Assembly: GCA_016748015.1 (NCBI GenBank)
Contig: JAAOMT010000523.1
Span: 804,156 to 868,155 of the forward strand
Source of the DNA: Geosiphon pyriformis uo1
Lineage: Eukaryota > Fungi > Glomeromycota
Reading direction: 5' to 3'
DNA length: 64,000 bases
Shown: piece by piece, positions 5,923 to 55,016 of the stretch
How the letters are laid out: each line of letters opens with the position of its first letter
How positions within the stretch are numbered: the first letter of the stretch is position 1
Program-made: the position numbers and the translations under genes
Notes under the pieces: model-generated
What the model was told of the DNA's origin: nothing
The model's input: only the letters and a program-made list of their open reading frames with translations
Database searches by the model: none

Positions 5923-6791
5923 TATTACAGATGATTATTTAGGGTCTCAAATCAAATAACAAATCCATAACTTAGTGCTTGGTTGGTATTCTAGTGTTAA
6001 TATCTGAAAGTTTTGTTGTGGAGTTCTTTGTATAATAAACAGAGATTTAATAGTTGTTTTTAGTAGCCTTCCGGAATTGCAATTCTGTCAAATTTTTTTC
6101 TCAGTATAGTGGCTGGTAATCCTCCTAGTAAGCTATTTTCAAATCTATGAATATTCTATCCTTGTTTCACAGGTCTTTTATCAGTCTCTATGATGTCTGT
6201 ATTTTAGTGCTTAATCCTTAATCAATTTAGTAAAACCAAAGAAATAGCAAAAGAAATAAAAGACAATAAAAAAAGATAAAGAAATAAATGAAAGCAATTG
6301 CAAGTTAGTATCCTGTTAATAGTCATGATCAAAAACTATTGTTCCAGTGTGGTTAAGTATCAATTACTATTAACATGAAATGTTGATAGTGAAGAGTGGT
6401 TTGAGATAGTGAATAATTATTTATTAATATTTGTAAATGGAAGGTTGCTTAGATCAAATCAAAACTGAAAGATCTGTCTTTTCTATTTCTAATGCTATCA
6501 CTATATATACATAATTTGGGTTTTATGAGATTATTTACATTTTCAAGCAATATGCTATAATTTTTCAAGCAATGCTCACATTATTGAGCAATATGCCATA
6601 TTTTCTTGACATCACTCTACATTGCTGAGTGATATGCCATGATTTCTGATATTGCTCCATATTGCTGAGCAATGTGCTATGATTTCTGACATTGCTCTAT
6701 ATTGCTAAGCAATGTGCTCACGTGCTAATTACTACTCTTTTATTGGTCTACTATTTTTCTATATCTGTTTTCTTTTTTTTTATGAGTAACA
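5923..6791 (-). repeat. 3' LTR of element B
   Basis: On the minus strand TGTTACTCAT...TGTAATA; preceded by PPT AAAAAAGAGGAGATAA; ~30-bp tandem repeats at 6545-6720. Confidence 0.92.
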
Positions 6792-6805: not shown

Positions 6806-7441
6806 TTAATATTGAGTTCTGTTGAAATCTTTATTTTGAATTAATTCCAATACTTCTTTTTCAAGTATTGTTTGTTTAACTCTGTTTCTCACATCTTCTA
6901 TTTGTGTATTGTTTATTCTTCCCTATTGGTTAATGGTTATGATTTTCATGTCAGAATGTAACAGTATTTCTGGGTAGTTCTGAAATATGTTGTATAGTTG
7001 GTATATTGCTTTAACATGTAGTGTTGAATTTGTCTTCTTTCTGATAAATTTTTCAATTTGTTGTATTATGTTTTGGTTGAATATTCTCTTGGATTTGTCA
7101 ATATACAACTCCTAAATATTCAACTTTTGACCTAGCTGATAGTAACAATATGATATTGGAAGTCATTCTGTCTATTGCTTCTAATTTTTTTTTGTAAGCT
7201 CTTCTGTTGGTGCCATAATAGGTATTTTCTCAAAAGTGTTCTTTATTTTTTCTATTAAGTTATCTATTCAGTTTTTATCATTTTTTGGTGGCTGCTGATA
7301 TGGTATATTCTTTGTTTTTCTTTGGATGTTTTGATAGCAAATTATTTGGTTGTTAATAACAATTTTCATGTCTAACTGTTGTTTACTTAAGGCCTGGAAT
7401 AATTGTTGAGCTATAGTGTGAATATAATCCAGTATTTTCAT
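6806..7441 (-). pseudogene. Element B ORF3 (~211 aa, unknown function)
   Basis: 636 nt from ATG to TAA in frame, with internal stops. YIDKSKRIFNQ..LHVKAIYQL..YPEILLHSDM; homologous to ORF3 of A, C and D. Confidence 0.8.
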
Positions 7442-24315: not shown

Positions 24316-24950
24316 ATGGAAATACCAGATTATATTCACATTATAGCTCAACAATTATTCTAAGCATTAAGTCAACAACTATTAGACATGGAAATTATTG
24401 TTAACAACCAAACAATTTGCTATTAAAACACCAAAAGAAAGACAAAGAATACACCATATCAGTGAATACTAAAGAGTGATAAAAACTGGTTAAATAACAT
24501 AATAGAAAAAGTAAAAAACACTTTTGGGAAAATACCTATTATGGCACCAACAGAAGAACTTACAAAAAAAATTGGAAGCAATAGAAAGAACAACTTCCAA
24601 TATCATACTGTTACTACCAGTTAGGTCGAAAGTTGAATATTTAGGAGTTGTATATTGACAAATCCAAAAAAATATTTAACCAAACCATAATACAGCAAAT
24701 TAAAAAATTTATTGGAAAGAAGATGAACTCAACACTACATGTGAGAACAATTTATTGACTACACAACATATTTCAGAACTATTCAGAAATACTGTTACAT
24801 TTGAACATGGAAACCATAACCATTAACTAATGGAGAAAAATAAACAATGTACAAGTAGAAGACATGAAAAATAAAATCAAACAAATAATACTAGAAAAAG
24901 AAGTATTAGAGCTAATTCAAAATGAAGATTTTGATGGAGCTCAATATTAA
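24316..24950 (+). pseudogene. Element C ORF3
   Basis: MEIPDYIHIIAQQLF...ILEKEVLELIQNEDFDGAQY*; one 1-nt frameshift; stop runs into the PPT. Confidence 0.8.
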
Positions 24951-24964
24951 AAAGGAGGAGATAA

Positions 24965-25826
24965 TATTACTCATAAAAAGAAAACAGATAGAGAGAAAAT
25001 AATAGATCAATAAGCAAATAGTAGTTAGTACATGAACACATTGCTCAGCAATAGAAAGTAATGACAGAAATCACAACACATTGCTCAGCAATATGGAGCA
25101 ATGTTAGAAAATTAGGGCACATTGCTCAAAAAATCATAACATATTACTAGAGAATGTAAACAATCTCATAGAACATCAATTATGTATATATAGTGGTAAT
25201 ATTAGAAGTAGAAAAAGCAGAATCCTTCTATTAGAAACCTCTTAGTTTAGATTTCATTTAAGCAACTTCTATTCACAAATATTAATAAAATAATTATTTA
25301 CCATTTCAATTCACTTTCTACTATCAACATAAAGTGTTGATAGTAATTGATACTTAACCACACTGGAACAATAGCTTTTGATCATGTTTATTGACGGATA
25401 TTAACTTGTATATTGCCTTGGCTCATTTCTTTATTTTCTTTTATTTTCTTTTATTTTCTTTTCTTAATTTTTATTGTTGTATACTAACTGATTAAGAATA
25501 AAAAAAGTGCTGAGTAATTGATGTCATAGATAGCCTGGTAAAAGACCCAGAAATAAGGATAAAATTATATATATATTAACAGATAGCTTATCAGAAGGGC
25601 ACAACTTCCAAAATAAACTGGCCACCAAGCTGAAGACAGAAATTGGGAACACAACTCACCAACCAACTACATCATTATTAAATCTCTGTTCATTATACAA
25701 AAGACTTCACACTAAAACCTTCAGATAAAACAACACTTTTAGATATTACCAACAACATTATATCAATTGAGCACCAAGTTACAAGTTTGTTATTTGCTTT
25801 GAGACCCCAAATAATCACTTGTAATA
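24965..25826 (+). repeat. 3' LTR of element C
   Basis: Follows AAAGGAGGAGATAA; TATTACTCAT...TGTAATA, then TSD CCAT. Confidence 0.92.
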
Positions 25827-26433: not shown

Positions 26434-28272
26434 TGTTACAGATAATTATTTGGAGTCTCAAGTCAAATAACAAATCTGTAACTTGGTGTTTGGTTGGTAT
26501 TCTAATGTTGATATCTGAAGGTTTTGTTGTGGAGTTTTTTGTATAATGGACAGAGATTTAATAGTTGTTTTTAGTAGTTTCCTAGAATTGCAATTCCATC
26601 AAATTTTTTTCTCAGCATGATGGCCAGTAATCTTTCTGGTAAGCTATCCTCAAATCTATCAGTATTCTACCCTTGTTTCACAGGTTTTTTACCAGTTCCT
26701 ATGATGTCTGTATTTTAGTGCTTAATCTTTAATCAATTTAGTAAAACCAAAGAAATAACAAAAGAAATAAAAGACAATAAAAGAAGATAAAGAAATAAAC
26801 AAAAGCAATTGCAAGTTAGTATTCCATTAATAGCTGTAATCAAGAGCTATTGTTCCAGTATGGTTAAGTATCAATTACTATCAACATAAAGTGTTGATAA
26901 TGGAGAATAGTTTGAGATAGTAAATGATTATTTATTGATATTTGTGAATGGAAAGTTGCTTAGATCAAATCTAAACTGAGAGGTCTGTCTTTTCTACTTC
27001 TAATGCTACCACTATATATACATAATTTGAGTTCTATAAGATCACTCACATTCTTGAGCAATGTGTTATAATTTCTCAAGCAATGCTCACATTGCTGAGC
27101 AATATGCCATATTTTCTTGACATTGCTCTATATTGCTGAGTAATATGCTGTGATTTCTGACATTGCTCCATATTGTTGAGCAATGTGCCATGATTTCTGA
27201 CATTGCTCCATATTGCTGAGCAATGTGCTCACATTGTTACCAGTAGAATTTTAGCTATTAATTAGCATGAAATTACCCTTATAATTCCTATAATTAATTA
27301 GTATATTAATATCATTTCAAATTATTATTTATTATTTAATCAATTATCACATATCACAATTCAATTAAATAATCTAATTAGTATAACAGAAAGTAGAATG
27401 ATCAAATTACACAATATCCTGAACTTTGTAACATTCTGAAATTCACCGAAATTTATAGAAATTTGCTGAAATTATGAATAGTTTACCCAAATTAATCAAT
27501 AGTTCAGTAAAATAACTTGTAGTTCATCAAAATGTATCTTTAATTTACCGAAATTTGAGCAAAGAGAAAAAGTGCAAGTTCATAGACTAGTACTACAACA
27601 AGTTGTATAAAAGAAGAGCTTTTCTCTTCAAGAAAATATATCTTACTTTTAGATTTATTACTTAGAACCATTCTTACACACAAAAAAAATAACTATCAAA
27701 TAATTCAAAAAACCAAATTCTTTAATTATTGCACTTGGAAAATCCCCAAAACCCAACTAACATTTTGAAATTGATTAGCTACCAATTTCAGTAAACTGTT
27801 AGTAACTCCAGGCCTGGATAGAAAACGTTTCTCTTGATAAAATTTTATTTCTTTTATTTTTCTTTTATTTTTTTATTTTTTTCTTATTACAATCATTAGA
27901 GTAGCCTACAGACGAGATTCCTATAGAAGAGTTGACTTTCACAGTAAAGTAACTACACATTTTAGTGAGCTTCCAGAAGAGCAATTCCTGAGAAAGAGTT
28001 GACATTTACTACAATGTAACTACACAAAGTAACTGGCACGGAATTGGCCATTCCACTTATAAGCCCAGCAGTTCAAATTATAGAAGATAATTTGAAGATA
28101 AATTCAGTTATTGGAGGTTTAACTACTTCTAGAAAACGTGAATTTGCAACCACCAGACATTTACAGCATTCAAAAAAAGAAACCAAAAACCTTCAATAAC
28201 AATGTGCTAACTACTACTCTTTTATTGGTCTACTATTTTTCTATATCTGTTTTTTTTTTTTTATGAATAACA
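26434..28272 (-). repeat. 5' LTR of element B, split by a solo LTR
   Basis: 26434-27234 plus 28206-28272 align with 5923-6791. Confidence 0.9.
27235..28201 (+). mobile_element. Solo LTR of family X, 967 bp
   Basis: TGTTACCA...ATAACA termini; TSD ACAT/ATGT (empty site ACGT at 6720-6723); homologous to 47593-48463. Confidence 0.9.
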
Positions 28273-28491: not shown

Positions 28492-28692
28492 CAAAAAAAA
28501 AAAAAAAAAAAGAAAAACAAAAAAAAAAAAAAAAAAAAAACAAAAAAAAAAAAACAACAAAAAAAAAACAACACAAAACAAAACAAAACAACAAAAAAAA
28601 AACAACAAAAAAAAACAACAAAAAAAAACAACAAAAAAAAACAACAACAAAAANNNNNNNNNNNNNNNNNNNNTACAAAAAAAAAAAAAAAA
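28492..28692. other. Assembly gap (20 N, 28654-28673) with low-quality A-rich flanks
   Basis: Run of n; TACAAAA repeated on both sides; the orthologous site in the other copies is a short A-rich stretch. Confidence 0.9.
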
Positions 28693-28975
28693 TGGAAATG
28701 CTGATGGATTGTCGAAAATAAAACAAATCTAAGAACATTTTAACCCAAAAATATAACAAAAAAATAAATATACAAAAATACCAACAACTCCAATATTATA
28801 TAAATACCCAACTGTTCAAGGAAAAATTATCTTAAAAAGAACAAAATAACATAAAACAACAATCAAAATATTTTATCAACCATCAAAATATACTTTACCA
28901 GAAGAACAAAAAAAATCTAGATCAATCAACCAGAGTAATTACAGAATCAGAAAAAGAGACAATATTATTCAATAT

Positions 28976-29815
28976 TATTACAGTTGATTATTTGAGATCT
29001 CAAATCAAATAACAAATCTGTAACTTGGTGCTGAGTTGGTATTCTGATGTATATCTAAAGGTGTTGTTTTATCTGAAGGTTTTGTTATGAAGTTCTTTGT
29101 ATAATAAACAGAGATTCAATGACAATATAGTTGGTTGGTAAGTTGTTTTCTCAATTTCTGTCTTCAGTGTGGTGGCCAGTTTATTCTGGCAGTCATGCTC
29201 TTCTGGTAAGCTATCTGTTAATATATATATGATTCTACCCTTATTTCTGGGTCTTTTATCAGATTATTCATGATGTCAATTACTCAGTGCTTTAATCCTT
29301 AATCAATTAGTATACAACAATAAAATCAAAGAAAAAAAAAAATAAAAGAAATAAAGAAATGAGCCAAGGCAATGCACAAGTTAGTATTTTGTCAATAGCT
29401 GTGATCAAGAACTATTGTTCCAGTGTGGTTAAGTATTAATTACTATCAACATGAAGTGTTGATAGTGGAGAGTAGATTGAGATAGCAAATAATTATTTTA
29501 TTGATATTTGTGAATAGGAAAGTTGTTTAGATAAAATCTAAACTGGAAGGTCTGTCTTTTCTATTTCTAATACTACCACTATATATACATAATTGAGATT
29601 TCTCAATTCCTCAATTCTTCACACCAGAAATTCTGGAATTTCTTTTAAGAGGAATCCTGAAATTCTGGAATTCTGTGATTCCTTGTATAAGAATTCTGAA
29701 ATTTCTGAAATCCTGCAATTCCTCTGAGAGAAATCCTGGAATTCCACATTTACTGTGCCTACTTCTGATTGGCTAATTTATGCTAATATATACTTTCTAT
29801 ATTCTATGAGTAACA
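28976..29815 (-). repeat. 3' LTR of element D
   Basis: Pairs with 38203-39058; GGAATTCC-rich repeats at 29600-29750. Confidence 0.92.
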
Positions 29816-29829
29816 TTATTCCCTCCTTT

Positions 29830-30468
29830 TTAATATTGAGCTCCATTGAGATCTCCCAAATCTCCTAACTTTAATTCTCTGTTTTTAAGTATTTCTTGAA
29901 CTTCTTTTTCAAGAATTATTTGTGTTATCTTGTTTTGTAATTTTTCAAATTGGGTGTTGGTTATTTTTCCCATTTGGTTGACAGTAATAGTATCCATTTC
30001 AGTGTTGAGCAAGATTTCTGGTCGATCTTGGAATCTGGTATGTAGCCAATAAATGGCTCTTGCTTGTGTAATTAAATTGTTTTTCCCCACAAATTGTTCT
30101 AGTTGCTATAGTATTGTTCTGTTGAATAATCATTTTGTCTTATTCATGTATAGATTCTGAATTTTCACATGTTGTCTCAAGTAAAAGTAGCAAAAGTTTT
30201 TTGAAAATTGTTGTATCTACCAATTTCAGATTTCTATAGTTAACTCTTGATATTGGGTAATTTTGGGTTGTGTTTCTATCACCAGTTTTATTTTTGCTAT
30301 TATTTTGTCAACAGTGTTTTCTGTTTTTCTTCGTACTTTATCCTGTGGTCTTTTTTTGGTGTTTGTGTATCTGATAGTTTGTTAATTGATTGTAATCTCC
30401 ATTTCTTGTTGTTGGATTAATTGGAAGAGTTGTTGTGCTAGTGAGTGCATGTTATTAATAATTTCCAT
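29830..30468 (-). pseudogene. Element D ORF3 (divergent variant, ~212 aa)
   Basis: MEIINNMHSLAQQLF...RAIYWLHTRFQDRPEILL...ILEKEV...GAQY*; 639 nt in frame. Confidence 0.8.
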
Positions 30469-30524
30469 ATTTCTGATGTCTTCTGTCATGTTTACCATGT
30501 CTTTATATACTCTTTCTATTGTTT

Positions 30525-31905
30525 AATTTTATGTGTTTGGTCCAATGATTATGATTAGTTCTAGATCTTGTGGAATTTCATCTGGTTGAACTAGTATTCT
30601 CTGTACTTCTAATTGTAGAATATTACTGGTGAATGATAATACTATATAGTGATATGGTTTCAGTCAATCACCATGTGCTGCTTTGGCTAAAATTTTGTTG
30701 TTCCATCTTAATTTATAAGCTCCATTTCCAAGAATTTCTTCTATGTGAAATGATCCATCTCATTTGGGGTCAAATTTTCCACTCCATTGTTTTTCTGCTT
30801 TGGTACGATGTAAAAGTACTTTGTCTCCAATCTTGAATTTAACTGGTTTATCTGGTAGTTGGTTATTATGTTTTTCTTTTTGTCTTTTTTGTGACTTTTG
30901 GATGTTATCAACTGCTTTTCGCCATTTGTTTTCTAATGTTTTTATTAAGTCATATGTTCTTTTTAGCAACATTTTCTGAAAATTGTCTTCAGTTATTAGT
31001 TCTGTTGAATAAGTATTGACTTCTATCTCAACTGGTAATGTTGCTGTTCTATCATATACTAATTCAAATAGTGTTGCTTGTGTAGTGTCTTGCTTCATTG
31101 TTCAATAAACAAATAATACTGATGGTATGAACAAGTCTCATTTATCTTGGTTTTCTTAACTGATTTTGGCAATCACTTCACACAGTGTTCTATTAAATCT
31201 TTCAACTAATCTATTGGTTTGTAGATGGTATGGTGATGATAATGGTCTTTTTATCCCAAATCTTTGACTTAATTCTGTCAATGTTCTGTTTACAAAGTAG
31301 ATTCCTTAATCTAATAATAGTTCTTTTAGACACTCATGTCGACAGATCAGGTTTTGATAAACAAATTTGACAATGGATTTTGCATCTGCTCTTTGGATGG
31401 CTTTTGCTTCTGGCCATTTAATAAGATAATTCATGGCTACTACAATATATCTGTTGCCTCTGCTGGTTATTGTTAATGGTCCAACTAAGTTAATTCCAAT
31501 ACAATCAAATAATTATTCTACTTTAATTGGTTTTAATGGTTTGCTGGGTTTTGTTTCTCCTCTTCTTTGACAAGCATCACAATTTTGAACATATTGGATG
31601 ATATCTGAATATATTAATAGCCAATAGTATCTTTTTCTGGTTTTTTCTATGATTGCTTCTTTATGAAAATGTTCTGCTGTTGAATCTGCATGCATGTTGA
31701 ATAATATTGTCTCTTTTTTTGGTTCTGTAATTACTCTGGTTGGTTGATCTGGATTTTTTTTGTTCTTCTGGTAAAGCATATTTTGATAATTAATAAAATA
31801 TTTTGATTGTTGTTTTATGTTTTTTTGTTCTTTTTGAGATAATTTCTTTTTGAACAATTGGGTATTTATATAATGTTGAAATTGTTGGTATTTTTGACTA
31901 TTTAT
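30525..31905 (-). pseudogene. Element D integrase
   Basis: H..H/CDAC motif, TKWPEA, KFKIGDKVLL..KFDPK; start codon reads ATA. Confidence 0.9.
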
Positions 31906-31935
31906 GTTTTGTTATATTTTTGAGTTGAAATGTTT

Positions 31936-34900
31936 TTAGATTTGTCTTATTTGCAACAGTCTGTTAGCATTTTCATTGTTTTTTCTTTTTTTATAATGTA
32001 CTGTATAATTGAATGATAAAAGTTCTATTTTCCATTTGGTGTGACAATCGTCTGCAAATTTTTGTTTTTGGATTGAAGTCAATCCTTTGTAATCAGTGTA
32101 CACATCAAACTTTTGACTCAAGTATTTTTTCTATTTGATAACAGCCCAATAGATAGCTAAGTATTCTAGTGCTGGAATTCCATAGTTCTTCTCAGCCAGA
32201 CTTAAGCTTTTACTGGCATAAGCTACTAGATGTTCTCTTCTATCAGGTCTTTTCTGAGATAATACTGCTTCCAATGCTTGACCAAATGCATTAGTAATAA
32301 TGATGAATGGTTTATTGTGATCTAGATACATCAACACCAGAGCTTGAATAAGTTTTCTTCTTAGTGTGTCAAACGTTTCCTGTTGAGCTTCTTTCCATTT
32401 ATACTTTATATTCTTAGTTTGTAAGTGATGAAATGGCTGGGCCAGTTTAGAAAAATCTTTGATAAAGCAGCAATAGTACTCTGCAAATCTCAAGAATGCT
32501 CTTAATTCTGTGAGATTGTTTGGTACTAGAAAGTTTTTGACAACTTCAATTTTGTCTGGATCTGTTTTGATGTCATTTTTGCTTACAATATATCCCAAAA
32601 ATTTTAGTTTTGTTTTTCCAAAGAAGCATTTGTTGGCATTTAGTTTCAATCTTGCCCATCTGAGTCTTTCAAATACTTGTTGGAAATGGTAAAAATGATT
32701 ATCAAATGTTTTTGAGAACACATTTGTGTCATCTAAGTAAACAACTACTGATTTTTACAGTAATCCAGTATAGACAATTTCCATAAGCCATTGGAACATG
32801 GCTGGAGCATTCATCAAACCAAATGGCATGACTTCAAACTCAAAATTTTTTTCTTTTATAGTAAATGTTGTTTTTTCTTTGTCAACTGAATCTATAGCTA
32901 CTTGTCAGTAACCATTATCTAAATCTAGTGTTAAGAACTATTTATTTCCTCCAAAAGCATTGAATAGTTCTTGTATTTTTGGAGTTAGATAGCTATCATT
33001 TTTGGTTACTCTATTCAGTTTCTGATAATTTACACAGAAGTGAATTTTCCCATTTTTCTTTTAGACTAGTATCACTGGTAATGACCATGAACTTATTGAT
33101 AACTGAATTAACCCATTGTTAAGCATCTAATTGATTTCTTGATGAATAATCTTATGGCTAGCTAGTGATACTCTGTACACTCTTTGTTTTATTGGCATTG
33201 TATTTCCAGTCTTGATCTAATGCTAAATGATGTTGGTGCAGCCAAATTTATTTTCACTTACAAAAATGTCATTGAAATTGTTGAGTAACATCTTTAGCTG
33301 CATCTATTAGAGTGGATCTAGATTTCCCAAATTCATCTGTTCCAATTGTTCTGGTTGGAATAGATAATATTCACTTTGTTCATAAATAGTTTGTAATATG
33401 ATATCTACATATCTACAAAGTTGTGAAAAATCTGAAATGTCATTTGGTGGTTGCTTCTCAACTTCAGTAGTTAATTATCCAATAATAGTTCTCTTTGGTA
33501 TTTCAATAACACTCCCAGTTGTGTTGTAGATGAGAATTTTAATGTTTTTGGGACTTTTGGCTGATATGTAAAGATTAGTGAGTCCAATCTCTCCTGATTC
33601 ACAAATGGTGGCTTCTGCTTTAAACAACTGAGCTTGATTCTTTACTTCTCTTTTTATAGCTAATATATACTGGTCATATGGTGGAATAGAAATTGATTAA
33701 CAGATTGAGATAATTTCTCCTTTGTCAATAATCTCTTTCTCTGTCATATTAACTGGTATATCTATTTTACCCATTGATCTGAATTTCTGTATCCCTTTAG
33801 CAGTAATTCTTAATTCTTCCCTGTTTCCTACTGACACTAACTGAACTATTTTCACCAGATGTAGAAATATTGCTTGTGCTATTTTTTTGTTTGGCTCTAT
33901 GATATAGACCTTTTCAGAGTTATTTTGTAGCATAGCAATAATATTTTCTATGTATTCTGTGTCAATTATCCCTTCTCTGATGTTGATTCCCTTTTTGGCT
34001 AAGCTACTCCTAAATGTTAACTGAACCATTGTTGTTGCTAGAATTTCCAGAGCTATTTTGAGATCAATGCAGGTGCACAAATGGGGTTCCAATTTTATGG
34101 CATTCTTTTCTGGATATCTCAGATCAAACTCTGCATTAGTATTATGTGTGTGTTCTGACATGATACCTTCACCATTATTGCTGAACCATTTAAGTTTCTG
34201 TTTTTTGGTGAGGTCAAGAAGTGCAATATATTGTTTGGAGTTTGAATTGGAGTTTGAATCTGAGTTAACATCATTATTATTTTGAGTGGAGCTGGAACCA
34301 TTATTTTTGTTGTCATTATTGTTGGAATTTGAATTGGGATTGAAAATTGATTCCAATTCTGATGTGCAGCTGCTGATTGGTTTGTCTTCTTCTGGGATTG
34401 TGTAGATCATGCATGGTGGTGGATTGTAAATAAGGTCACACTCATTACAATATTGAAAGTCACACAGGATTAAGCAATGTTGACATAATTAAGTATTTAA
34501 CTGCTCTAAACGCTGTTTTTGTTCTTCTCTAGTGAATGTTAAACACTGTTAATGTTTGTGAAATTTCTCTGGATTGTCTTCAATGTTGCCAAAGACATTA
34601 AAGGTTTGGACGTATTTGGATTCAGAAAGAGACAGAGGGTTGTTTTTGATTTTTAAAAGTTTGCTAGTTGTCACACCTTCTGTTTTCACATATGCCATTC
34701 TTCAGAGTTCATGTTTATCATGGGAATATCCTTCCAATCATTACAACACTCTTTTCTAGGCATTGTTGATTGGTGTTTTTTTGTGTACCTAGTCATTGAT
34801 TAGGATTGTATACTAACACATTTCATTGCACATTTTTCTTTGTCCAGGAATTTCATTCTACATTCCTTCATCTGAGAGAGTTTCTCCACAAGCCAAGCAT

Positions 34901-37900
34901 GGTTCATTGTCCCATTTTCCAATTTGTTTTGGTCTTCCAAAGGGTTTAATAATGCATAAACAGCAATAGAATTTGGTTACCGAAATGTACTTCTTATCAT
35001 CACCACAACAAGTGCCCATTGATGACAATTTCTTGCCACAATTAATATATACTAGTTTTGAGTAGTAATAAGTAGATCATTGAGGTATAGTATAGGAATT
35101 ATAAGTGGTGGTGCTGTTGGGTGTTGGTTCTTCTTCCTTCTCTTTTCTTTTTCCCTCTTTATGTTTTTTCTATTTCTAATTTATTAGTTCTTCCATGTCG
35201 TTGTCAGTTTCCCAGGCTTGGTCAGCATTCCAGGTAAGTTTTTCTTTCTGTTTTTTTTTGTTGTTGTCATTCCAGGATAGTATTGGTGGTAGTTCATTGT
35301 GGTCGCTGTCAGCCCACAAGATCTGATATGCTTCCCAAGTAGGTTTCTCTTTTTTTTCTTCAAAGTCAATAAGTGGTCATGTTTTAATGCTAGGTTTAAA
35401 ATGGCCACACATTGCTGATACTCATGTGTGTTGGCCATTCTGACTGATTTGCAACTTTTGTGTTGTCCAGTCAAGTGTTGCATTGGTCTTAGATAGCCAG
35501 TCATTACCAACTAGAGCTTAGTACTGAATAGCTTCTATGACCAGAACTTTGATTGGTACTGTAATGTTATTGACTTCAATAAAGAAGTCATCAATCTCAT
35601 CAATGGGAGTTTTGGTTGCTCTATTAGCAATTATGATTCTAGTGCTGGCAGCATGATCAACTCAGTGACCTAATTGGTCTATGAGTTGTCTTGTGATGAT
35701 GCTGCTAGCTGATCTACTGTTTAGGATCAGTTTGATGGAGTGGTCATCAATTTTGGCATCAGTGTACATAGCAGTAATAGGTTTTTTTTTAAAGTGGCTC
35801 CACTAAACAACAGCATAGTTGATGGTTCTTCAAGTTCAAATGGAAAGATGGCATCCAGTAATTCATTCTTTGTGATAATAGCTGGGGAAATATTGCTGGT
35901 AAGTGTTAATTGTTAGTTGGTTTCTGGATTATTGGATTGGGTGTCTTCTGGATTAGTTAGGAGACTTAAATAGTTCTGGAAATTCGGGTTTTGGGCATAT
36001 CCAGTGTCTGAATTCCATTGTTGAGATCCTGCTGGTTGTATGGAAGAACTGGGGATCAGTTGGTGGACTACTATCAATAATCTCCAGCTTTGTTGAGTCA
36101 ATCTCGGCCTTTGGGTTCCATTTTGAAGTAAGTCTTGTGATGGTGTTTAGATTTGTTGGAATTGATAGATTATTTGAGGCTGCAGCTGATAAATTGCTGG
36201 TGTCATTATTTGATAAATTGACATTTGATATACTAGTGGTTGATAAAGTGGTTGCTATGTCATAAGTAGATAATTCTAATGATATGGCTCTGAGTTTGGT
36301 GGGTTATTCGGAATTTGAAACCAGTAATTAAGGTTTCAATATTGATTTCCTGATCATTGGTTATTTAAGCAATGACAGCAGTCAATTTGTAGGTGTCCTT
36401 GTTTTCCACAATAGTGGCAAACATGTATTTCCTGTTGCTACTGTTGATTGGTTGATGATAATAGACATGACTGATTCTGGAAATAATTTGTGTTTTCAGA
36501 ATTATTATGTCATTGTGGTGGTTGATAAATTGCATGATTGTCAACTAAGTATCTCTCTAATTTCTGATTGATTGATTTGCTGAATTGCTTCAATTTGAAA
36601 TCCAAGTCAGATGATCCATTCATTACTAGATTTACTGCTTGGGTGTGGTTGGCTTCTAATTCAACAGCTTTAAAATTTCTGGCATTTGTGACTGCGGCTT
36701 GAAGGTCTGCTGGATGTATTGGGCACATGTGTTGGAGGATACTACTGTACAGGCCTCTGATGAATTGATTTAGGATTTGTGACACTGTGAAATAATCAGC
36801 CTGTATGGTCTGGATTTGGTGCAGATTTTTGTGAAAGCATCCTAAGTAAGTAGTGACTGTTTCATTTTCTCCTTGCTTGATAGTGGTAAATGTGTTGGCT
36901 AGACAATTAATACTGTTATTATTACTGAAATATCCCAAGAATGCAACTTTGAATTCCTGGAATGTCTGAGGTTTGGCAACTAAACTTTAATACCACGAGT
37001 TGGTGGTATTCTGTAAGAAATAGGGGATGGCTTAGAGTGCTTTCATGTTATTCTATCTATTGGCCATAATAGCCTTCTCAATATTGTTGAGCCATATTTG
37101 GGCATTGTCTTCTTCACCAGTGAATTTCTTGAGCTTTGCTATTAAAGCATAGGCCATTGGATCCAAGTTGGGGTTGTGGCTGTTGAAGCGGCTGCTATGG
37201 TTGTTGGGGTGATTGAAGTGGCTATTGTTGTTGCTGTTTGTCAATTGGTGGAGCTGGTGGTGGATTGATCATGATTACTGAAGGTAAGTGTTGTTGATTA
37301 TTAATGTCGAAATTTTGATTATTCTGATTGTGTGGTGTTTGAAAGTTCGGAGTTTCGATTTCTGGATTTTCTAAATTTAGATTTTGCTAAGTATGAAGGT
37401 TCAGGGTTTTGATTTTCAGGTTTTTAGTGATCAAATTCTGGTAAGTAAATTCTTGATCTTCAGCTTCTTCTTCTTCCTTTTCTTCTGATTTTATTATTTC
37501 TCAGGAACTCACATTTCCGAAATCTGGTTGGAGTGGTGATAATTAGAATCCTGATGGCGTTGGGGATTGTAATTTAAATCCCTTAAAATAGTTGCTATAA
37601 GTTCTTAGTAACTCTGTTTTCTTTTGTTTATTTTGAAATAGGAGTTGGCCAAATGTTAATGTCACATGTAATGTGAATACATCTGTTGATGAGATGTTGA
37701 TAATGCTTCTGGGTGTATAGTGGTATGATGAGTTTATTGGTGATTCAACTCTGGTTTTCTTCTAAGTGGGTGGTTGTATCTGTTTTGGTATTACTGCTAA
37801 TGTTTGTAATCTTCCTTTGTCTTTGTCTGCATAAATAATGAGAAATTGTTGTTGTGTGTATCTTTCAATAGTTTGATTAATTTCCTTGATGACTGATGTG

Positions 37901-38140
37901 AAGCTGTAGTTTCTTGGTAAGCTGATATGTTGAAATAATTTTGTATAGAAATTTTTCCCTTGTGGATTCAATGTTAATTGTTCCTCCTAAGCAGTCTGTG
38001 ATTTTATTATTGACGTAAAAGTTGAAAGCTGACTCTGCTGGGAAATGGTTATTGTTTAATCCTAATTGTTGGCTGTACTGTTGAAACAAAAATTTGGCAA
38101 ATCTTAAGTGGTTTGTTCCTATGTTTTCTGATTTTGCCAC
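31936..38140 (-). pseudogene. Element D ORF1 Gag-PR-Cys-rich-dUTPase-RT-RNaseH
   Basis: Same domain order as B and C; dUTPase ~33770-34160; ends NANRLLQIRQI*. Confidence 0.92.
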
Positions 38141-38202
38141 TTTTGAATGATTGTTGTTGGTACTGGTTTTTTGTAAGATTATATTTCACAGGAAGCACCA
38201 AA

Positions 38203-39058
38203 TGTTATAGTTGATTATTTGGAGTTTCAAATCAAATAACAAATCTGTAACTTGGTGCTGGGTTGGTATTTTGGTGTATATCTAAAGATGTTGTTTTATC
38301 TGAAGGTTTTATTATGGAGTTTTTTGTATAATAGACAGAGATTTAATGGCGATATAGTTGGTTAGTAAGTTGTTTTCCCAATTTCTGTCTTCAGTCTAGT
38401 GGCCAGTTTATTCTGGCAGTCATGCCCTTCTGGTAAGCTATTTGTTAATATATATATGATTCTATCCTTATTTCTGGGTCTTTTACCAGTCTATTCATGA
38501 TATTAATTACTCAGTGCTTTAATCCCTAATCAATTAGTATACAACAATAAAATCAAAGAAAAAAAAAATAAAAAAAATAAAGAAATGAGCCAAGGCAATG
38601 CACAAGTTAGTATTTCATCAATAGCTGTGATCAAGAACTATTGTTCCAGTGTGGTTAAGTATTAATTACTATCAACATGAAGTGTTGATAGTGGAAAGTG
38701 GATTGAGATAGCAAATAATTATTTTATTAATATTTGTAAATGGAAAGGTTACTTAGATGAAATCTAATCTGGAAGGTCTGTCTTTTCTACTTCTAATGCT
38801 ACTGCTATATATACATAATTGAGATTCTTCAATTCCTCAATTTTTCACACCAGGAATTCTGGAATTCCTGGAATCTTGCAATTCCTTTTGAGAGGAATCC
38901 TGAAATTCTGGAATCCTGCAATTCCTTGTACAAAAATTCTGAAATTCCTGGAATTCTGCAATTTCTCTGAGAGGAATCCTGGAATTCCACATTTACTGTG
39001 CCTACTTCTGATTGGCTAATTTATGCTAATATATACTTTCTATATTCTATGAGTAACA
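38203..39058 (-). repeat. 5' LTR of element D
   Basis: TGTTACTCAT start on the minus strand; followed by the PBS. Confidence 0.92.
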
Positions 39059-39062
39059 ACAT

Positions 39063-40222
39063 ACACTCAGATCTAACAGCAAGACATTTTTACAAAGAAA
39101 CAACCATAAAAAGAGATACTATTGGCCATTAATGTATCCAGATATCATCTAATATGTTCAAAATTGTAATGCTTATCAAAAAAAAGGAGGAACAAAACTT
39201 AATAAACCATTAAGATTTATCAAAGTAAGACAACCATTTAATCACATTGGAATTGACTTAGTTAGACCATTAACAATAACCAGCAGAGACAACAGATATA
39301 TTGCAGTAGCCATAAACTATCTTACAAAATGACCAGAAGCAAAAACCATTCAAAGAGCAAATACAGAATCTATTGCCGAATTTGTTCATTAAGATTTGAT
39401 TTGTCAACATGGATGTCTAAAAAAACTACTATCAGATCAAAGAACTTACTTTGTGAATAAAACATTGGCAGAATTAAGTTAAAGATTTGGGATAAAAAGA
39501 CCATTATCATCACCATACCATTCACAAACAAATGAGTTAGTTGAAAGGTTCAACAAAACACTATGTAAGGCAATAGCCAAGATCAGCCAAGAAAACCAAG
39601 ACAAATAAGATTTGTTCATATCATCAGTATTATTTGCTTATTAGACAATGAAACAAGACATTATATAAGCAACACTATTTAAATTAGTATATGGTAAAAC
39701 AGCAACATTACTAGTTAAGATAGAAGTCAAAACATATTTAACAAAATCAATAACAAAAGAAAATTATCAAAGAACATTGTTAAAAAAAACATATGACTTA
39801 ATAGAGATGCTAGAAAACAAATGACAAAAAGCAGCTAATAACATCTAAAAGTCACAAAAAAAACAAAAAGAAAGATACAATAACCAATTACCAAATAAAC
39901 CAGTCGAATTCAGGATTGGAAACAAAGTACTTTTATATTATACCAAAGTGGAAAAACAATAGGTGGAAAATTTGACCCCAAATGGGATGGACCATTTTAC
40001 ATAGAAGAAATTATAGAAAATGGAGCTTATAAATTAAGATAAAACAACAAAATCTTAGCCAAAGCAGCACATAGTGATCAACTGAAATCATATCACCATA
40101 TAGTGTCACCATCTACCAGTAATATTACACAATTAGGAGTACAGAAACTACTAATTCAACCAGATGAGATTCTATAAGATCTGGAACCAATCATAGTTAT
40201 TGAACCAAACATGTTAAATTGA
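39063..40222 (+). pseudogene. Element A integrase, 3' part (5' part at 28764-28975)
   Basis: HSDLTARHF, GIDLV, HSQTNELVERFN, WDGPFYI. Confidence 0.9.
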
Positions 40223-40277
40223 ACAACCAAAAGAGTATATAAAGACATGGTATACACAACAAAAGCAACAAAGAAAA

Positions 40278-40913
40278 ATGGAAATACCAGATCATATTCA
40301 CATTTTAGCTCAATAATTGTTTTAGGCTTTAAATCAACAGCAAGTAAACATGGAAATTATCATCAACAATCAAACAATCTGTTATCAAAACACCAAACAA
40401 AAAGGAAAAAGTACATCATATCAGCAACCACATAAACAATCAATAAACTGGTCAAATAAAATAGTAGAGAAAATAAAGAACACTTTTGGAAAGATAACAA
40501 TTATGATTCCAACAGAAAAACTAATAAAAGAAAATTAAAACCAATGAATAGACCAACTTCTAATACCATACTGCTACTATTAATTGGAACGAAAAGTAGA
40601 TATTCAGAAATTATATCTTGACAAATCTAAGAGAATCTTCAATCAAGAGATAATTCAAAACATTGAAGACATTATTAGAAAGAAAACAAACTTAACACTA
40701 CACATTAGGACCATTTATTAATTACACACTATATTTCAAAACTATTCAGAAGTATTGTTACACTCTGACATAGAAACAATAATTATCAACCAATGGAGAA
40801 GAATGAACAATTCACAAATTAAAGAAATAAAGAGTAGGGTAAAACAGATGCTACTTGAAAAAGAAGTATTCAACATAATTCAAAATAAGGATTTTGATGG
40901 AGCTCAATATTAA
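40278..40913 (+). pseudogene. Element A ORF3 (211 aa)
   Basis: 636 nt in frame, MEIPDHIHILAQ...LLEKEVFNIIQNKDFDGAQY*; internal stops mostly of CAA/CAG/TGG-derived type. Confidence 0.8.
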
Positions 40914-40925
40914 AGGAAAAGATAA

Positions 40926-41820
40926 TATTACTCATAAAAAAAAAACAGATATAGAAAAATAGTAGACCAATAAAAAAGTAGTAATTAGTATGTGGTGACA
41001 TTGCTTAGCAATATGGAGCAATATTAGAAATTATGGCACATTGCTCAACAATGTGGAGCAATATTAAAAAAGTAGGGCACATTGCTTAGCAATGTAAGCA
41101 TTGCTCAAAAAATCATAGCATATTGCTCAGAAATGTAAATGATTTCATAGAACATAAATTAAGTATATATAGCAGTAGTATTAAAAACAGAAAAAACAAA
41201 CCTTTCAGTTTTAGATTTGATTTAAGCAACTTTTTCATTTACCAATATTAATAAATAATTATTCACTATCTCAATCCATTATCCACTATTAATACTTCAT
41301 ATTGATAGTAATTGATATTTAATCACACTAGAACAATAGCTCTTAATCATGGTTATTAATGAGATACTAACATTCATTGTCTTGGCTTATTTTTTTATTT
41401 TTTTTTATTTTTTTTTATTTTGTTTTGTTTTGTTATTTCTTGTTGTGTATTAATTGATTAAAGAATTAAAGTGCTAAATTATAATATCAGGATATAGCAC
41501 TGATAAAAGATCTAAGAATAAGAGTAGACACTCAGATTTGAGGATAGCTTATCAGGAGATTGCTGGCCACCATGCCAAGAAAAAAATTGATGGAATTGTG
41601 ATTCCAAAAAGTGATAGACAACAACTACTTAACTCATGGGTTGATATTAGAAACATCATTTAAAAAAAATCACATTGGAATCTCTGTTCATTATACAAAA
41701 AACTCAACCAAAACCTTTAGATACTGTTAATTTTCAGAAACCAACATCATTAGCCATCAATTGAACATCAAGTTATGAGTTTGTTATTTGCTTTGAGACC
41801 CCAAATAATCACTTGTAACA
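40926..41820 (+). repeat. 3' LTR of element A
   Basis: Follows the PPT; TATTACTCAT...TGTAACA. Confidence 0.9.
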
Positions 41821-42026
41821 CCAGCCACCATGCTGAAGACAAAAATTGGGAAAATTACTTAAGAAACATCACAAACATCTGCTGTTAAATCTCTGTCTAT
41901 TATACAAAGAACTCAACCAAAACCTTCAGATCATGAAAACTTTCAGAAACCAATATCAGCCATCAATTGAACATCAAATTATGGATTTGTTATTTGCTTT
42001 GAGATCTTGAATAATCATCTGTAATA
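41821..42026 (+). repeat. 3' remainder of an older same-family LTR (element E) into which A inserted
   Basis: Resumes mid-LTR at CCAGCCACCATGCTGAAGAC and ends ...ATAATCATCTGTAATA. Confidence 0.8.
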
Positions 42027-43600
42027 ATATTATTTAAACTAGTTTATAAAAAAAAACTATATTATTTATTAAATAAAAACTACTTATCTTTCTAACAAAA
42101 CAATTACTAAAGAAAATTTTAAAGCTATTTTGTACTAAAAAACATACTAACTTATAGAAATATTGAAAAACAATTATAAAACAGCAGCTAACAATATTAG
42201 TAATACTCAGAAATAACAGAAAAAAATATATAATAATTGCTTACTTAATTAACCAGTTGAATTTAAAATCAAGTATTATTATATTGTATTAAAGCTAAAA
42301 AATAGTAGAATAGAAAGTTTGACCCAAAATAAGATAAACTATTTTACATATACAAAGTTTTGGGTAATAGAGCTTACAAACTACAATTAGAAACACAAAT
42401 TTTATTAATTAGACCAGAAAATATATTATAAGATTTAAAACCAATTATTATTATTAAACACAATCTACATATAATAATTTGAATTATGTAAAATAAATAT
42501 ATAAATACCAAAAATATGAAAGAAAAAGTTAAGAACACTCTCAACATAAACTTTTTAAACAAAATTTTAAAACTTTTACAGCAACTATTTAAAACAATTC
42601 AACAATTTACAACACTAATAAAAATTACAATTAATAGAAAAAATATATGATTCAGAAATATGAACAAAAAAAAGTGGATAAAAGTTTAACTAAATATTTC
42701 TATTTTTATAATTAATTAAGAAAAAAAATATATATGTAGTTATATATGCTTGACAAAATTAAGAAGACTTTAAACAAATTAACCATAGAACTAATAATAA
42801 AAAAATAAATACCAAAAACTTTTAAAGAATAAAAAAAAAACTTTTATCAATATACTGGTTTTTTAAAATTGGCAAAAGATTAAATCTATAAATGCCATAT
42901 CTAAACATTAATATTTAATAGAAAAGCTCTTAAACAAATGAAAAAATTCATCAAAAAAAACAACTTAATAATATACTACAAAGCAATATATTAACTGTAT
43001 TCAGTATTTAAATGTTGTTCAATTATATTATTAAATAATTTATTAAAAACTATTATAGTTAACAACATAAAACAAATAATAAATATATAGTTTAAAAACT
43101 TACAAAAAACAATACTTAATATAATAATTGAATATTATATTAAAAAAACAATTTTTGTAAATACATACAATTTTGCAAAAGCTTAATTCTAAAAAAAAAG
43201 AATAATATTACTTAAGTAGAAAAACTAATTCAAAGCAATTAAAAAAAACATGATTAAAACATAATAATATAGAAAAAACATAATAATATAAAATAATACA
43301 AGATAATATACAATAATATAAAATAGCATAAAATAATTAATTATAACATAAAATAACTAGTTATAATATAAAAAAACAAAACAATAACAGAAATAGTAAA
43401 TAATAGCTAGTAATAACAAATAATTAAAAGCAATCTTGTAAAATTAGAAAATATATATAAAAACAAATAGCTTTAACAGATAAAAAAAGACAAATAAAAG
43501 ATAAAAACCCATTTTTTTAAAAATATATTTTAGCTTTAAAACTTGATAAATTTTTTTTATCTTATTTTCTCTATATTTTTATATTTACAATTAAATAAAA
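42027..43600 (+). mobile_element. Older degenerate gypsy element F: integrase C-terminus, ORF3 homologue, PPT, LTR from ~43206
   Basis: Relics of FKLVY, PVEFKI, KFDPK; ORF3-like KFIKKNNL..KAIY.L; purine run then TATTAC at 43206. Right boundary approximate. Confidence 0.65.
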
Positions 43601-45479: not shown

Positions 45480-48463
45480 AATAAATTCTGAAAACTACAA
45501 CAACATTAAAAACTATTTGGAAACTCTTATTATACCAAAAAATTGATTTCTAATTAAAAAATATTGATTATAACACTAATTAAAACCATTTTTCTTTCAT
45601 TATAACAAAATTTATTATAAAATTGTAAAAACTCAACCAATTCACTCAGATTAATACAAAAAAAACAAAAAAAAACCATTTTTTACAACATATATATTAA
45701 TCCATTATTAGCACATCTAAGAAAAAATAATATAATTTAAAAAAAATTAGAACATTATTTTTGGTTTTACATGTAAAAAAATATTTAACAATATATAAAA
45801 TCATGTAATAGTTGTTAAAAAAGAGAAAAAACTCATTCTATTAAGTCTTTAAATCTAATTAAAGTTGAATAATTTTTTGACAAAGTAAGAATTGATTTAA
45901 TTGGACCATTATCAATTATTATTTAAAAAAATTATTATATTACAATTACAATAAATTATTTTACCAAATAGCTTAAAACCAGAGCCATCTAAAGAGCAGA
46001 TGCAAAATTAGTAGCAAATTTCATCTATAAAGACATTATTTATAAACATGAATGTTTAATCAAACTTTTATTCAATTAAAGAACACATTTTATAAATAAT
46101 TTAATACAAAAAATTTGTAAATAGTTTAATATTAAATAATTATTATTATTATCTTATTACTTATAAACAAATAGATTAATAGAATACTTTAATTAAATAC
46201 TGTGTGAATTATTAGTTAAAGTCTCAACTAATTTTAAACAGAAATAAAATATTTTTATTTTATTAATGTTACTAGTTTATAGAATATTAAAACAAAATAT
46301 CATAAAACATATATCATTTGATCTCATTTATAAGAGAATAGCAATATTATCAATTAGTTTTATAGTGGAAACATTATTCAATACAACTTATTACAAAAAA
46401 AAACTTTTAAAAAACACTTTAACAAAAAGTCTATATTTTTTTCAGTACATTAGAAGAGAAATAACAAATTACAACTACTTATATTAAACACTCCTAAGTT
46501 CAACAAAAAGAATAACATAATAACAAATTATTATTAACTACCAATGAATTTAAAGTTGAAAATAAAGTTTTATTATACAGAACTAAAGCTAAAAAACAGT
46601 AAAATGGAAAATTTAATTATAAATAAAATAAATTATTTTATATTTACAAAGTTTTAAACAATAGATTATACAAATTAAGACTTGATAACAAAATTCTAAC
46701 AAAAATTGCATATAAAAATTAATTGAAATATTATTATTCCTAAACCAATTTTGAATTATTAATTTCACAAATTGGTACACATTTTCTTTTAATTAATTCC
46801 AAAAATATTTCTTGAAATTTGGAACTAATAGTTATAATACAACAATAATCAAACTTAAACATTTAAATTATTTAATTATATTAGTAATTTTTTTAAAAAA
46901 AACACAAAAACATTAAACAAAAATAGTAAAATAATTATCAAACAAATATTTCAAAAATTAATGTTAACTTTAAAAACATTTCTTGACTTATTCATAATAA
47001 TTAATAAAAATTAAATTAATTATATTCAGAAAAGAACTATAACTTTAATAATAAACAATTCTCAGAATTATTATTTTTATAAAAAAACACAAGAAATTAT
47101 TTTAAAAATCACTTACCAGAACTTTTAAAGCAAGTTTTAAAAGAAAATCTATTGTTTATCTCTATTAACATTTTTTTAAATGCCATAATACTTCAAATGT
47201 GTCTTAACAAAAATAATGAATATATTTCAATTTATTGATATTTTCAAATTGAAAAAACATTATACCAATAAAAACTAGAGCTTAAAACAATTAATTTTAC
47301 TTTTAAAGCAATATAAAAACAAATTCACAACAAATTTAAAACAACAGTTGAACCAATGATTGCTTATTACAAACTTAAAGCAGCTTTTAGACTTTATGAC
47401 TTATTCAATACTTGTGAAAACATCTTACAAAATTTAATACTCCAATCAATGAAGATTTAATATATTGGCAAACTTACAAAACTGAAATTTTAATAATTTT
47501 TAGACCAAATTATATTAATAATTTTGGATTACTATCTCAATATTACAAATAATATTTGGACTTCAATAGAGCTTAGTTTTGAAAAAAAATTATGTTACTA
47601 ATAGAAATTTAGCCATTATTTAATATAAAATTAGATTATGTAATATATTAAATTCTATAATATTTAAGAATTTACAGAAATTTGCAGAAATTTGTAAAAT
47701 ATCTTATTAGTTTACTGCAATTATTCATAGTTCATAGAAATAACTTGTAGTTTGTTAAAATGTATCTTTAATTTGTCAAAATTATAGCAAAAAAAAAGTT
47801 CAAGTTTATAAAATAATACTATAATAAATTGTATAAAAGAAAAGCTTTTCTCTTTAAAAAAATATATCTTATCTTATTTAATTTAAAATTATCTTATCTT
47901 AAAAATACTTTAAAAACAAATTCATTAATTATTTGCACTTAAAATTTTCCAAAATCCAACTACCATTTTGAAATTAATTAATTACTAATTTTATTAATTT
48001 ATTAGTGACTTTAAATCTAAATAGAAAATACTTTCCTTAAATAAATTTTCATTTTTTTTATTTTTTTTTACTTTTTTTATTATATATATTAGAGTAGTCT
48101 ACAAACAAAATTTCTGTAAAAAAGTTGACTTTTATAGCAAAATAATTACACATTTTTTAGTGAGCTTTCAGATGAACAATTCTTAAAAAAAAGTTAACTT
48201 TTACAACAAAGTAACTACATATTTTTATTAAGCTTCCAAATAAGCAATTTTTAAGAAAAAGTTGATTTTTACTACAAAGTAACTATATAAGTAACTGACA
48301 CAAAATTGGCCATTTTATTTATAAATTTAACAGCTTAAATTATAAGAGATAATTTGAAAATAAATTTAGTTATCAGAGGTTTAATAGCTTCTAATAATAA
48401 TAAATTTACGGCAAAATAACATTAAGAACATTTAGAAAAAGAGACCAAAAACATCTAATAATA
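45480..48463 (+). mobile_element. Degenerate family-X gypsy 3' half: integrase relic, ORF3-position region, 3' LTR 47593-48463
   Basis: ID.IGPL, NYFTK, RADAK, EFKVENKVLLYRTKAKKQ relics; purine tract then TGTTACTAATAG; LTR aligns with 27235-28201. Confidence 0.75.
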
Positions 48464-52285: not shown

Positions 52286-53340
52286 ATGGCTTTGAATTCA
52301 GAGAACTTAGTCGGCAGAACAGATAATAAAATTTCTTCAATTCAACCGCTTGAAGTTCCCTTAAAAACACCACCTATACAACCTGCTCACTTTCTACGCT
52401 CATCCCAATATTTGGTTGAAGAATCGGATAAATTCACTACAAAGATGTTTCAACTATCACCTTCCGATCCCAAGCAACAGCCAGTACAAAATCAACAACC
52501 AAAGCGAAAGGTTTTATTACTTTAGCTTGGGTTTCTATGATAAATTTATATTAATTAAAATATTAAAAGCATGGGCTAATATTGTCAGATAAAAGATTCT
52601 CTACTAGAAAATCCGACTTCTTCACTTAATTTCCTTCAGCAAGAAATAATCGCAAGTTATCGTCTTATTGATGAGAGTACAAAGTCATTTAGGAAAAGAA
52701 TAGAAACTGAGGAACGCCACGAAAATGAAGTAGAATCTAAAGCGTGCAAAAAATCTAGTGAAAGGCCCCCTTATTCGTATTCCAGTCTGATTGCTCAAGC
52801 TATATTAAATTCTCCTATCAAAATGTTGACACTCAATGAAATTTATAATTGGATATCTTGGACATATCCATTCTATGATAGAGAAATCAAATCGGGGACG
52901 GGATGGATGGCAAGTTGAGGCTCTCCAAATTTTTCATAAAAAATCCATTATTAAAAGTTCTATTTGATTACAAAAATCAGAATTCTATTCGCCATAATCT
53001 TTCTTTGAATCCGGCGTTTGTCAAAATGCCTCGTCCCCTTGAATACCCGGGTAAAGGAGTCCTTTGGTCTATAGCCGAGGACCAACAAAACTTGATGGCT
53101 GATAGTTGCCTCAAAGAGCGAAGGGGGGCCAAAAAACCAAGAACAATCGCTGACCCCAATTTGTCGGTTGACAATCAGCAAGTATATGGTTTTTCCGTCC
53201 CCCAATCCCAGATCCCGGCACCATCTCCAACTCTTGTCACTCCTTCAATTCCGCCCGTTCTCCCGAATCCATCAATTTCCGATTCCGAAGCCAACCTTTC
53301 TCACCTTCTTTTTTACCGGAGTCGAGATGAGGGTGATTGA
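52286..53340 (+). CDS. Forkhead-box transcription factor, ~301 aa; exons 52286-52510, 52589-52909, 52981-53340
   Basis: [31 protein letters not shown]|[21 protein letters not shown]; exon lengths 225/321/360 keep the frame. Confidence 0.9.
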
Positions 53341-54775: not shown

Positions 54776-55016
54776 GATAATAATTTGAGGATAAAAATCT
54801 ATGAAATTGGAAATAGTTTTTTGATTGGGTCTAACTCTTTATAGAAGGTAGATTTCATGATTATCACCCATCATCCCTTTTGAAATTCTCCCCGCGTCAT
54901 TTTTCACCTTTTCTTTTGTTCTCGAAACTTCAGAAATATTTGTTGTGACGTATTTTCACAAAGGAAAAGTCCATTCAATTCGAAAAATTTCATAGCAACT
55001 ATTTTTGAGGGAAGCC

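Follow-up and report, generated by a model that had tools for sequence, protein, structure and literature searches.

Simple long terminal repeat (LTR) retrotransposons are thought to depend on host factors for their transcription, and to our knowledge most of the extra open reading frames (ORFs) carried by such elements have no known function. Additional sense-strand ORFs located between pol and the 3' LTR form a recognized type in the available portion of a review (PMC7264820), the foamy-virus protein Tas (Bel1) is described, in the section consulted, as made from an internal promoter and as binding sites upstream of its promoter and in U3 (PMC3185757), and VANC is encoded by the VANDAL elements of Arabidopsis (PMC5735166). 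Here we analyzed an ORF in this position, ORF3, in a stretch of 64,000 nucleotides of contig JAAOMT010000523.1 of Geosiphon pyriformis (hereafter the window), the left two thirds of which consist of nested Ty3/gypsy retrotransposons with a gag zinc knuckle, dUTPase, reverse transcriptase (RT), ribonuclease H (RNase H) and integrase. The copy at 40278-40913 is carried by the 3' end of one of these, element B. Judged from the sequences, the results confirmed ORF3 as a real third gene under purifying selection, of which 40278-40913 is a dead copy, and it is close to certain that it is an accessory gene other than the envelope gene (Env). By analogy with Tas and VANC, ORF3 may bind DNA in a family-specific manner and thereby activate or de-silence the LTR of its own element, a reading to which we assign a probability of roughly 0.45.

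Four copies were delimited, namely copy B (40278..40913, + strand; 636 nt, 211 codons from ATG to TAA, six internal stops), copy A (6806..7441, - strand; 636 nt, six stops), copy C (24316..24950, + strand; 635 nt, a 1-nt deletion in an A run near 24567, seven stops), and copy D (29830..30468, - strand; 639 nt, five stops), which represents a diverged subfamily. These lengths agree with those given by an earlier sequence-only reading of the window, and the homology of A, C and D to copy B was established by tblastn (E 4e-75 to 1e-28), the amino-acid identity being 61-67% between B and A/C and 43-47% between D and A/B/C. The two older relics that had been put forward as probable homologues were both recovered by the hidden Markov model (HMM) of the family, each in a different subfamily. 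The relic at 42552..43183 (+ strand, frameshifted), of the P0151 subfamily, scored 75 bits and was 50% identical to P0151 (E 4e-23), and the relic at 46937..47607 (+ strand, frameshifted, reading into the polypurine tract (PPT) and LTR start), of the P0212/P0230 subfamily, which was missed with a first and narrower profile, scored 125 bits with the later HMM and was 57-60% identical to P0230/P0212 (E 3e-57).

A transversion-only test, comparing second positions with fourfold sites, was used to sidestep post-insertion decay. The ratio was 0.12 to 0.18 for ORF3 in all six pairs (p 0.03 to 2e-4), and elsewhere, with small counts, 0.11 to 0.32 for integrase and 0.07 to 0.10 for RT-RNase H. The Nei-Gojobori ratio of replacement to silent substitution rates (dN/dS) was 0.22 to 0.68, varying with the pair and with kappa, and the five indels that separate D from A/B/C (3, 3, 12, 3 and 24 nt) are all multiples of three. 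The broken state of all six copies and relics in the window could be taken to mean that the frame is non-functional hitch-hiking sequence, but this explanation is scarcely credible, being already refuted by the selection signal together with the in-frame indels; in addition, intact relatives exist, and the 24 stops of the four copies fall at 16 codons, every one of which carries Gln, Arg or Trp in siblings or intact relatives, with codons one transition away from a stop. The earlier suggestion of a real protein was thus borne out by purifying selection, frame-keeping indels and intact relatives, and the indels of D keep frame, with the qualification that no copy in the window is an open frame.

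The intact relatives, of 209 to 239 amino acids (aa), were found among the proteins of G. pyriformis and in a metagenome contig (L001), and include P0006 (211 aa, 63% identical to copy B ORF3) and P0008 (209 aa). All 120 listed of 132 protein matches to ORF3 are G. pyriformis hypothetical proteins, and 14 longer matches all correspond to gene models of G. pyriformis. Among 1.84 billion representatives, a profile search found 95 matches, the ten examined being eight G. pyriformis and two metagenome proteins, and a search seeded with these two metagenome proteins returned 33 matches, 30 of which were again G. pyriformis. No relative of P0008 was found in the metagenome contigs searched, nor of P0188 in the viral contigs searched. 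The ESM Atlas placed P0188, at 0.94, in a 98-member eukaryote cluster in which Mucoromycota are commonest, with a recognition below the mark of the tool that makes it a lead only, and returned no named cluster for P0008. A tree of 21 rows showed seven groups (A/B/C; D with P0008; P0151; P0144; P0212; P0188; P0176), in which long branches meet, according to a warning of the tool, and we make no claim on the order of the deep branches. The deep subfamilies number seven or more, most within one species, and the family accounts for well over a hundred 'hypothetical proteins' of G. pyriformis as transposon remnants. In contig L001, RT-RNase H closes with a stop and the integrase follows in a frame of its own, interrupted by one internal stop; a spacer of 316 nt leads to an intact ORF3 of 230 aa, after which come a PPT-like sequence and an LTR-type start. 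The gene order and the split integrase are thus the same as in the window elements. Four of four copies, two relics and L001 carry this additional ORF in the sense direction, behind pol and ahead of the 3' LTR, kept under selection.

With its place in the env position, ORF3 could be a degenerate Env or a cell-to-cell transfer protein, but the protein features make this very improbable and largely refute it. The highest Kyte-Doolittle hydropathy over 19 residues was 0.27 to 1.33 in 14 of 14 ORF3 proteins, in comparison to the usual transmembrane cut-off of about 1.6, so that no hydrophobic segment is present; no conserved Cys was found among the columns common to at least six of eight subfamily groups, no Env family was among the Pfam matches listed, and the model of P0188 described below is a soluble helical domain. 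With regard to a signal peptide, the N-terminal 9-residue hydropathy was 0.6 to 1.7, in an amphipathic helix. The earlier claim of a protein without transmembrane helix that is not Env was hence upheld. Asp, Glu, His and Ser were likewise missing from the conserved columns, a point against the enzymatic ORF3 types known from rotifer elements (PMC5408684); GDSL esterase and DEDDy exonuclease were both rejected, there being no invariant catalytic residues and no such family among the Pfam matches listed. Pfam scans gave nothing for ORF3 at the curated cut-off, PHROGs gave nothing for eight ORF3 proteins at the curated cut-off or E 0.001, and neither two ORF3 profiles against PDB sequences nor Foldseek against PDB and viral models gave a match at E 0.001; the searches for a characterised domain or a known Env therefore returned nothing significant.

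A structure was predicted by AlphaFold2 for P0188, a relative 23% identical to copy B ORF3, rather than for copy B itself. With a 51-sequence alignment headed by P0188, the mean predicted local distance difference test (pLDDT) was 79.4 and the predicted template modelling score (pTM) was 0.65, in comparison to a pLDDT of 46.8 for an earlier model from 30 close sequences, which was unusable and not searched. The N-terminal helix and hairpin were predicted with middling confidence, the basic linker with low confidence, and the helical core of residues 80-200 with pLDDT 84-96. The most conserved stretch comprises helix 126-141, GKTN, and helix 146-160 with R155, and the conserved surface-type residues are K143, T144, N145 and R155. 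A homodimer prediction of P0188 without alignment gave no verdict, at a score of 0.01. No chain among 48,161 reached Z 5 in VIA-align. Four of the best 50 rows were ParB-family DNA-binding domains, weak matches all on the helical core: Spo0J (Z 4.1, root-mean-square deviation (rmsd) 5.3, 92 aligned), KorB (Z 3.2, rmsd 4.6, 90 aligned), SopB (Z 3.2, rmsd 5.0, 93 aligned) and ParB (Z 3.1, rmsd 3.1, 59 aligned). Their recurrence within one family is the reason why we counted these matches as a lead. A sigma factor fragment was aligned over all its 57 residues (Z 3.5, rmsd 2.4). A possible likeness to the DUF1016 N-terminal (YhcG) domain did not stand out from shuffled sequence: an hhalign comparison based on a profile of 11 sequences put Y-x-x-I-G and R-x-Y-x-x-F in register with DUF1016 at a score of 21.5 and a probability of 3%, and higher scores were reached by at least five of 100 block-shuffled controls.

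Comparison of ORF3 with pol located where the families differ. Between D and A/B/C, transversions amounted to 0-3% over most of RT-RNase H-integrase, except for one 200-column segment at 6-7% in the pairs with C, and to 15-25% from the ORF3 ATG onward, the jump beginning within about 50 nt of this ATG. The U3 regions of D and A/B/C gave no alignment (22-38 nt only), and in the 220 nt after the LTR TATA box they align over 195-216 nt. The divergent block, made up of ORF3 and the U3 repeat array, opens at the ORF3 ATG and closes at the LTR TATA box, and ORF3 types about 45% identical are found beside integrases with about 1% transversions between them. In the A-D pair, 11 of 24 silent sites carried transversions in ORF3 in comparison to 5 of 107 in integrase (p 2e-6), with B-D and C-D alike; overall, silent transversions between D and A/B/C were about 10-fold higher in ORF3 than in integrase at a similar replacement to silent ratio. 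Since the silent transversions of ORF3 far exceed those of integrase while the selection ratio is alike, an older, exchanged module is indicated, and since A and D each have matching LTR pairs, the exchange predates their insertion. As read from these alignments, ORF3 with the U3 array is a block exchanged between families on a nearly uniform pol. The earlier statement that ORF3 diverges faster than pol is therefore correct in that ORF3 is more diverged, but its constraint is not weaker than that of integrase and the difference comes mainly from module exchange. At long range the identity to L001 was 23-28% for ORF3 in comparison to 49-52% for integrase, where rate and age are not separable.

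Each ORF3 type with intact LTRs (A/B/C and D) has its own 40-bp palindromic array in U3. In the 3' LTR of B (40998..41138, + strand) the array consists of about 3.5 units of 40-41 bp with inverted ATTGCTC/GAGCAAT half-sites, and the same type occurs in the 3' LTR (6585..6720, - strand) and 5' LTR (27055..27228, - strand) of A and as a half-site cluster in the 3' LTR of C (25040..25127, + strand); 23 of the 30 GAGCAAT sites in the window fall within U3 of A/B/C-type LTRs. The array in the 3' LTR of D (29627..29744, - strand), and that of the same type in its 5' LTR (38852..38988, - strand), has 40-bp units with GGAATTCC/GGATTCC motifs and is unrelated to the A/B/C array. A TATA-like box, a candidate internal promoter, is present at corresponding positions in four of four copies; in B it lies at 40236..40243 (+ strand), 34 nt ahead of the start codon of ORF3. 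One 7-mer is found in L001 at two places in the spacer preceding ORF3 and at three in U3, which was equalled by one of 2000 Markov-simulated spacers; the 7-mer was chosen from the same data as tested, and local duplication could yield the same pattern. When contigs were searched with the ORF3/U3 junction of D, the six of 91 rows listed had no loose end at the PPT, too few to judge recombinants.

At its 3' end, the ORF3 stop continues straight into the PPT in four of four copies, as had been noticed earlier; in B the conserved GGAGCTCAAT motif, the stop and the PPT occupy 40899..40925 (+ strand), immediately 5' of the 3' LTR. The 10-mer at the GAQY end also precedes the PPT in L001, but in a different reading frame. 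Because it is conserved as DNA in another frame, GAQY at the end of ORF3 probably reflects a constraint on DNA, namely a cis-acting signal next to the PPT, and not a motif of the protein. The shared motifs listed by the sequence-only reading were all found.

The exchange of ORF3 between families as one unit with the block of U3 repeats makes it likely to encode a DNA-binding switch for its own element. In the activator or anti-silencer reading, ORF3 would be transcribed from an internal promoter at the TATA-like box, the product would be a small nuclear protein that enters the nucleus and binds the family-specific U3 half-sites of its own element, and the bound protein would activate or de-silence the LTR in a host that methylates transposons. 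ParB-family DNA-binding domains bind inverted-repeat sites, and a narrower proposal, which we consider possible but doubtful, is that a ParB/KorB-like helix-turn-helix protein fits its array of palindromic operators as a key fits a lock, the two being exchanged as one cassette on a common pol and each family activating or de-silencing only itself; in the literature searched, no LTR retrotransposon with such a protein/operator-array pair turned up. Several points weigh against the activator or anti-silencer reading. Its main weakness is that ORF3 and U3 are neighbours, separated by about 25 nt of sequence common to both types, and linkage alone could have moved both. Only two ORF3 types in the window have readable LTRs (A/B/C and D), and B, whose ORF3 differs considerably from those of A and C, has the same U3 array. 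U3 repeat arrays may equally be sites for host factors, and the U3 motif was found upstream of ORF3 in none of A, B, C and D, only in L001. All fold scores lie below Z 5, in the background range of the tool for helical proteins, where unrelated helical proteins rank first, and the isoelectric point (pI) of the family ranges from 5.2 to 9.9, which is not uniformly basic.

The position of the integrase bears on a further explanation, namely that ORF3 acts on element RNA or the particle, as an export factor, a chaperone or an integrase partner, and that the U3 arrays travel with it by adjacency alone. A separately encoded integrase is unusual for a Ty3/gypsy pol. In four of four window elements a stop at the RNase H end sets the integrase apart as an ORF of its own (22840-22880, 28724-28760, 31900-31944, 8880-8918), and likewise in L001 (760-800). 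The junction motif with this stop lies at 28724..28739 (+ strand) in B and at 22840-22855 (+ strand), 31929-31944 (- strand) and 8903-8918 (- strand) in the others. The suggested check of co-occurrence found ORF3 and split integrase together in all five elements with a readable junction. A basic patch of 5-7 Lys/Arg in 15 residues was found in every member tested, the window copies have a pI of 9.3-9.5, and the CERV protein of Cer1 is reportedly an accessory export protein of an LTR element. On the other side, ORF3 does not track the integrase as a tight partner would, given the contrast in divergence described above, the intact relatives have a pI of 5.2-7.1, and no RNA-binding family was matched in the Pfam scans. 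Overall, we regard an action on RNA or the particle as unlikely. Among the three functions guessed earlier, the anti-silencer, here joined with a DNA-binding activator, fits best, and the RNA chaperone fits poorly with the range of pI.

The carriers of ORF3 show the marks of Ty3/gypsy elements, with LTR pairs for A and D, a primer site starting with TGG, a PPT, and the order gag-protease-RT-RNase H-integrase; the Pfam matches were zf-CCHC, dUTPase, RVT_1, RT_RNaseH and rve, and the protease was recognized by its DSG motif only. Element A (5925-27232, - strand) is split by block C (15366-25826, + strand for its ORF3). Element D (28978-39058, - strand) sits within the integrase of element B, cutting its 5' part (about 28750-28975) off from the decayed 3' part (39058..40222, + strand), and the 3' LTR of B is at 40926..41823 (+ strand). 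The differences within LTR pairs were almost all transitions (transitions to transversions 93:2 for A and 60:3 for D), and the observed to expected CpG ratio was 0.09 in element D in comparison to 0.90 in the host gene region, which together fit methylation-driven silencing, as expected.

Attack by the host is evident from this strong decay of C to T and the loss of CpG, and, in the part of a study consulted, a related fungus has transposon methylation and small RNAs from Gypsy elements (10.1101/2021.03.30.436303). Along with the many deep subfamilies, most in one species, this would suit a protein of general counter-defence, which would bind to and block a component of host silencing (the small-RNA or methylation machinery) and diversify under an arms race. 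We consider such a protein unlikely, as there was no sign of positive selection, the excess divergence being silent as well as replacement, and as the matched U3 arrays and the shared L001 motif are left unexplained.

Some other features of the window were recorded. At 15366-16571 an A/B/C-type LTR is interrupted at 15737 by an LTR with a D-type U3 and an A-type U5, running into gag, and block C is for this reason itself a mosaic. About 200 codons of protein sequence at the gag start are common to A, C and D (16591-17227, 25790-26311, 37877-38185). A dUTPase domain, preceded by a Cys-rich stretch, lies between protease and RT (20587-21333, 33697-34488, 10677-11660), with a Pfam match in both of the two copies scanned. 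An LTR of the family of the second relic breaks the 5' LTR of element A (27235-28199 and 47590-48460); it contains 68-bp repeats in tandem (48118-48289) and short ones of 10 bp in U3. In element B an A/C-rich low-complexity run with 20 N (28493-28673) resembles a gap in the assembly or an artefact of sequencing. Around C and D, what appear to be 4-bp target-site duplications with the pattern NCAT/ATAT (15362-15365, 25827-25830, 28971-28974, 39058-39061) hint at a target preference. Outside these elements, a Tc5/pogo-type DNA transposase remnant is present at 2263-2757 (HTH_Tnp_Tc5 and DDE_1, Pfam), and host genes at 52580-58204 and 62439-63321 encode a forkhead-domain protein and a rhomboid protease (Pfam), and a motif resembling PHD was noticed near 62439-62744 by eye alone.

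According to the portion of the source available, LTR elements make up 41.2% of the G. pyriformis genome (PMC11952901). If the activator or anti-silencer reading is true, a self-activating or anti-silencing cassette would help explain LTR expansion despite heavy methylation-type decay. With two natural pairs of protein and array on a single pol backbone, cross-specificity could be compared cleanly, and a pair that works would provide a compact inducible switch for a fungal group poor in genetic tools. Our literature search, which did not extend to most subscription papers, the Geosiphon genome papers or supplements, returned no paper describing this ORF3 family.

Similar to the sense additional ORFs described in the accessible parts of the review and of a rotifer study (PMC7264820, PMC5408684), ORF3 has the same position, orientation, family-wide carriage and modular exchange. 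A key difference is that the sense ORFs described there are env-like with transmembrane segments or are enzymes (GDSL, DEDDy), while this ORF3 is predicted to be soluble, without conserved catalytic residues and without a Pfam match. In comparison to ParB, Spo0J, KorB and SopB, the modelled likeness is weak and structural, over the helical core, with rmsd of 3-5 A and identity of 8-15%, and unlike ParB the protein has no sequence match and no ParB CTPase domain. As with Tas, as far as the consulted section describes it, ORF3 is an accessory gene beside the 3' LTR, and L001 shows a Tas-type layout of sites (PMC3185757); Tas, in contrast, belongs to an animal retrovirus with Env and shows no sequence relation in the Pfam scans, and the internal promoter and binding proposed here are inferred. 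As with VANC, in the available text on VANDAL elements, ORF3 is element-encoded, more variable than the core enzyme and found in a methylating host, and the VANC targets are tandem repeats differing between related families (PMC5735166), in comparison to the two unrelated 40-bp arrays that are candidate targets here. VANDALs, however, are DNA transposons, while the carrier here is an LTR retrotransposon in which demethylation would be only by analogy, and the DUF1985 and DUF287 domains of VANC are absent among the Pfam matches listed for ORF3. In general, the most likely reading by analogy is that ORF3 works like Tas or VANC while being a member of neither family.
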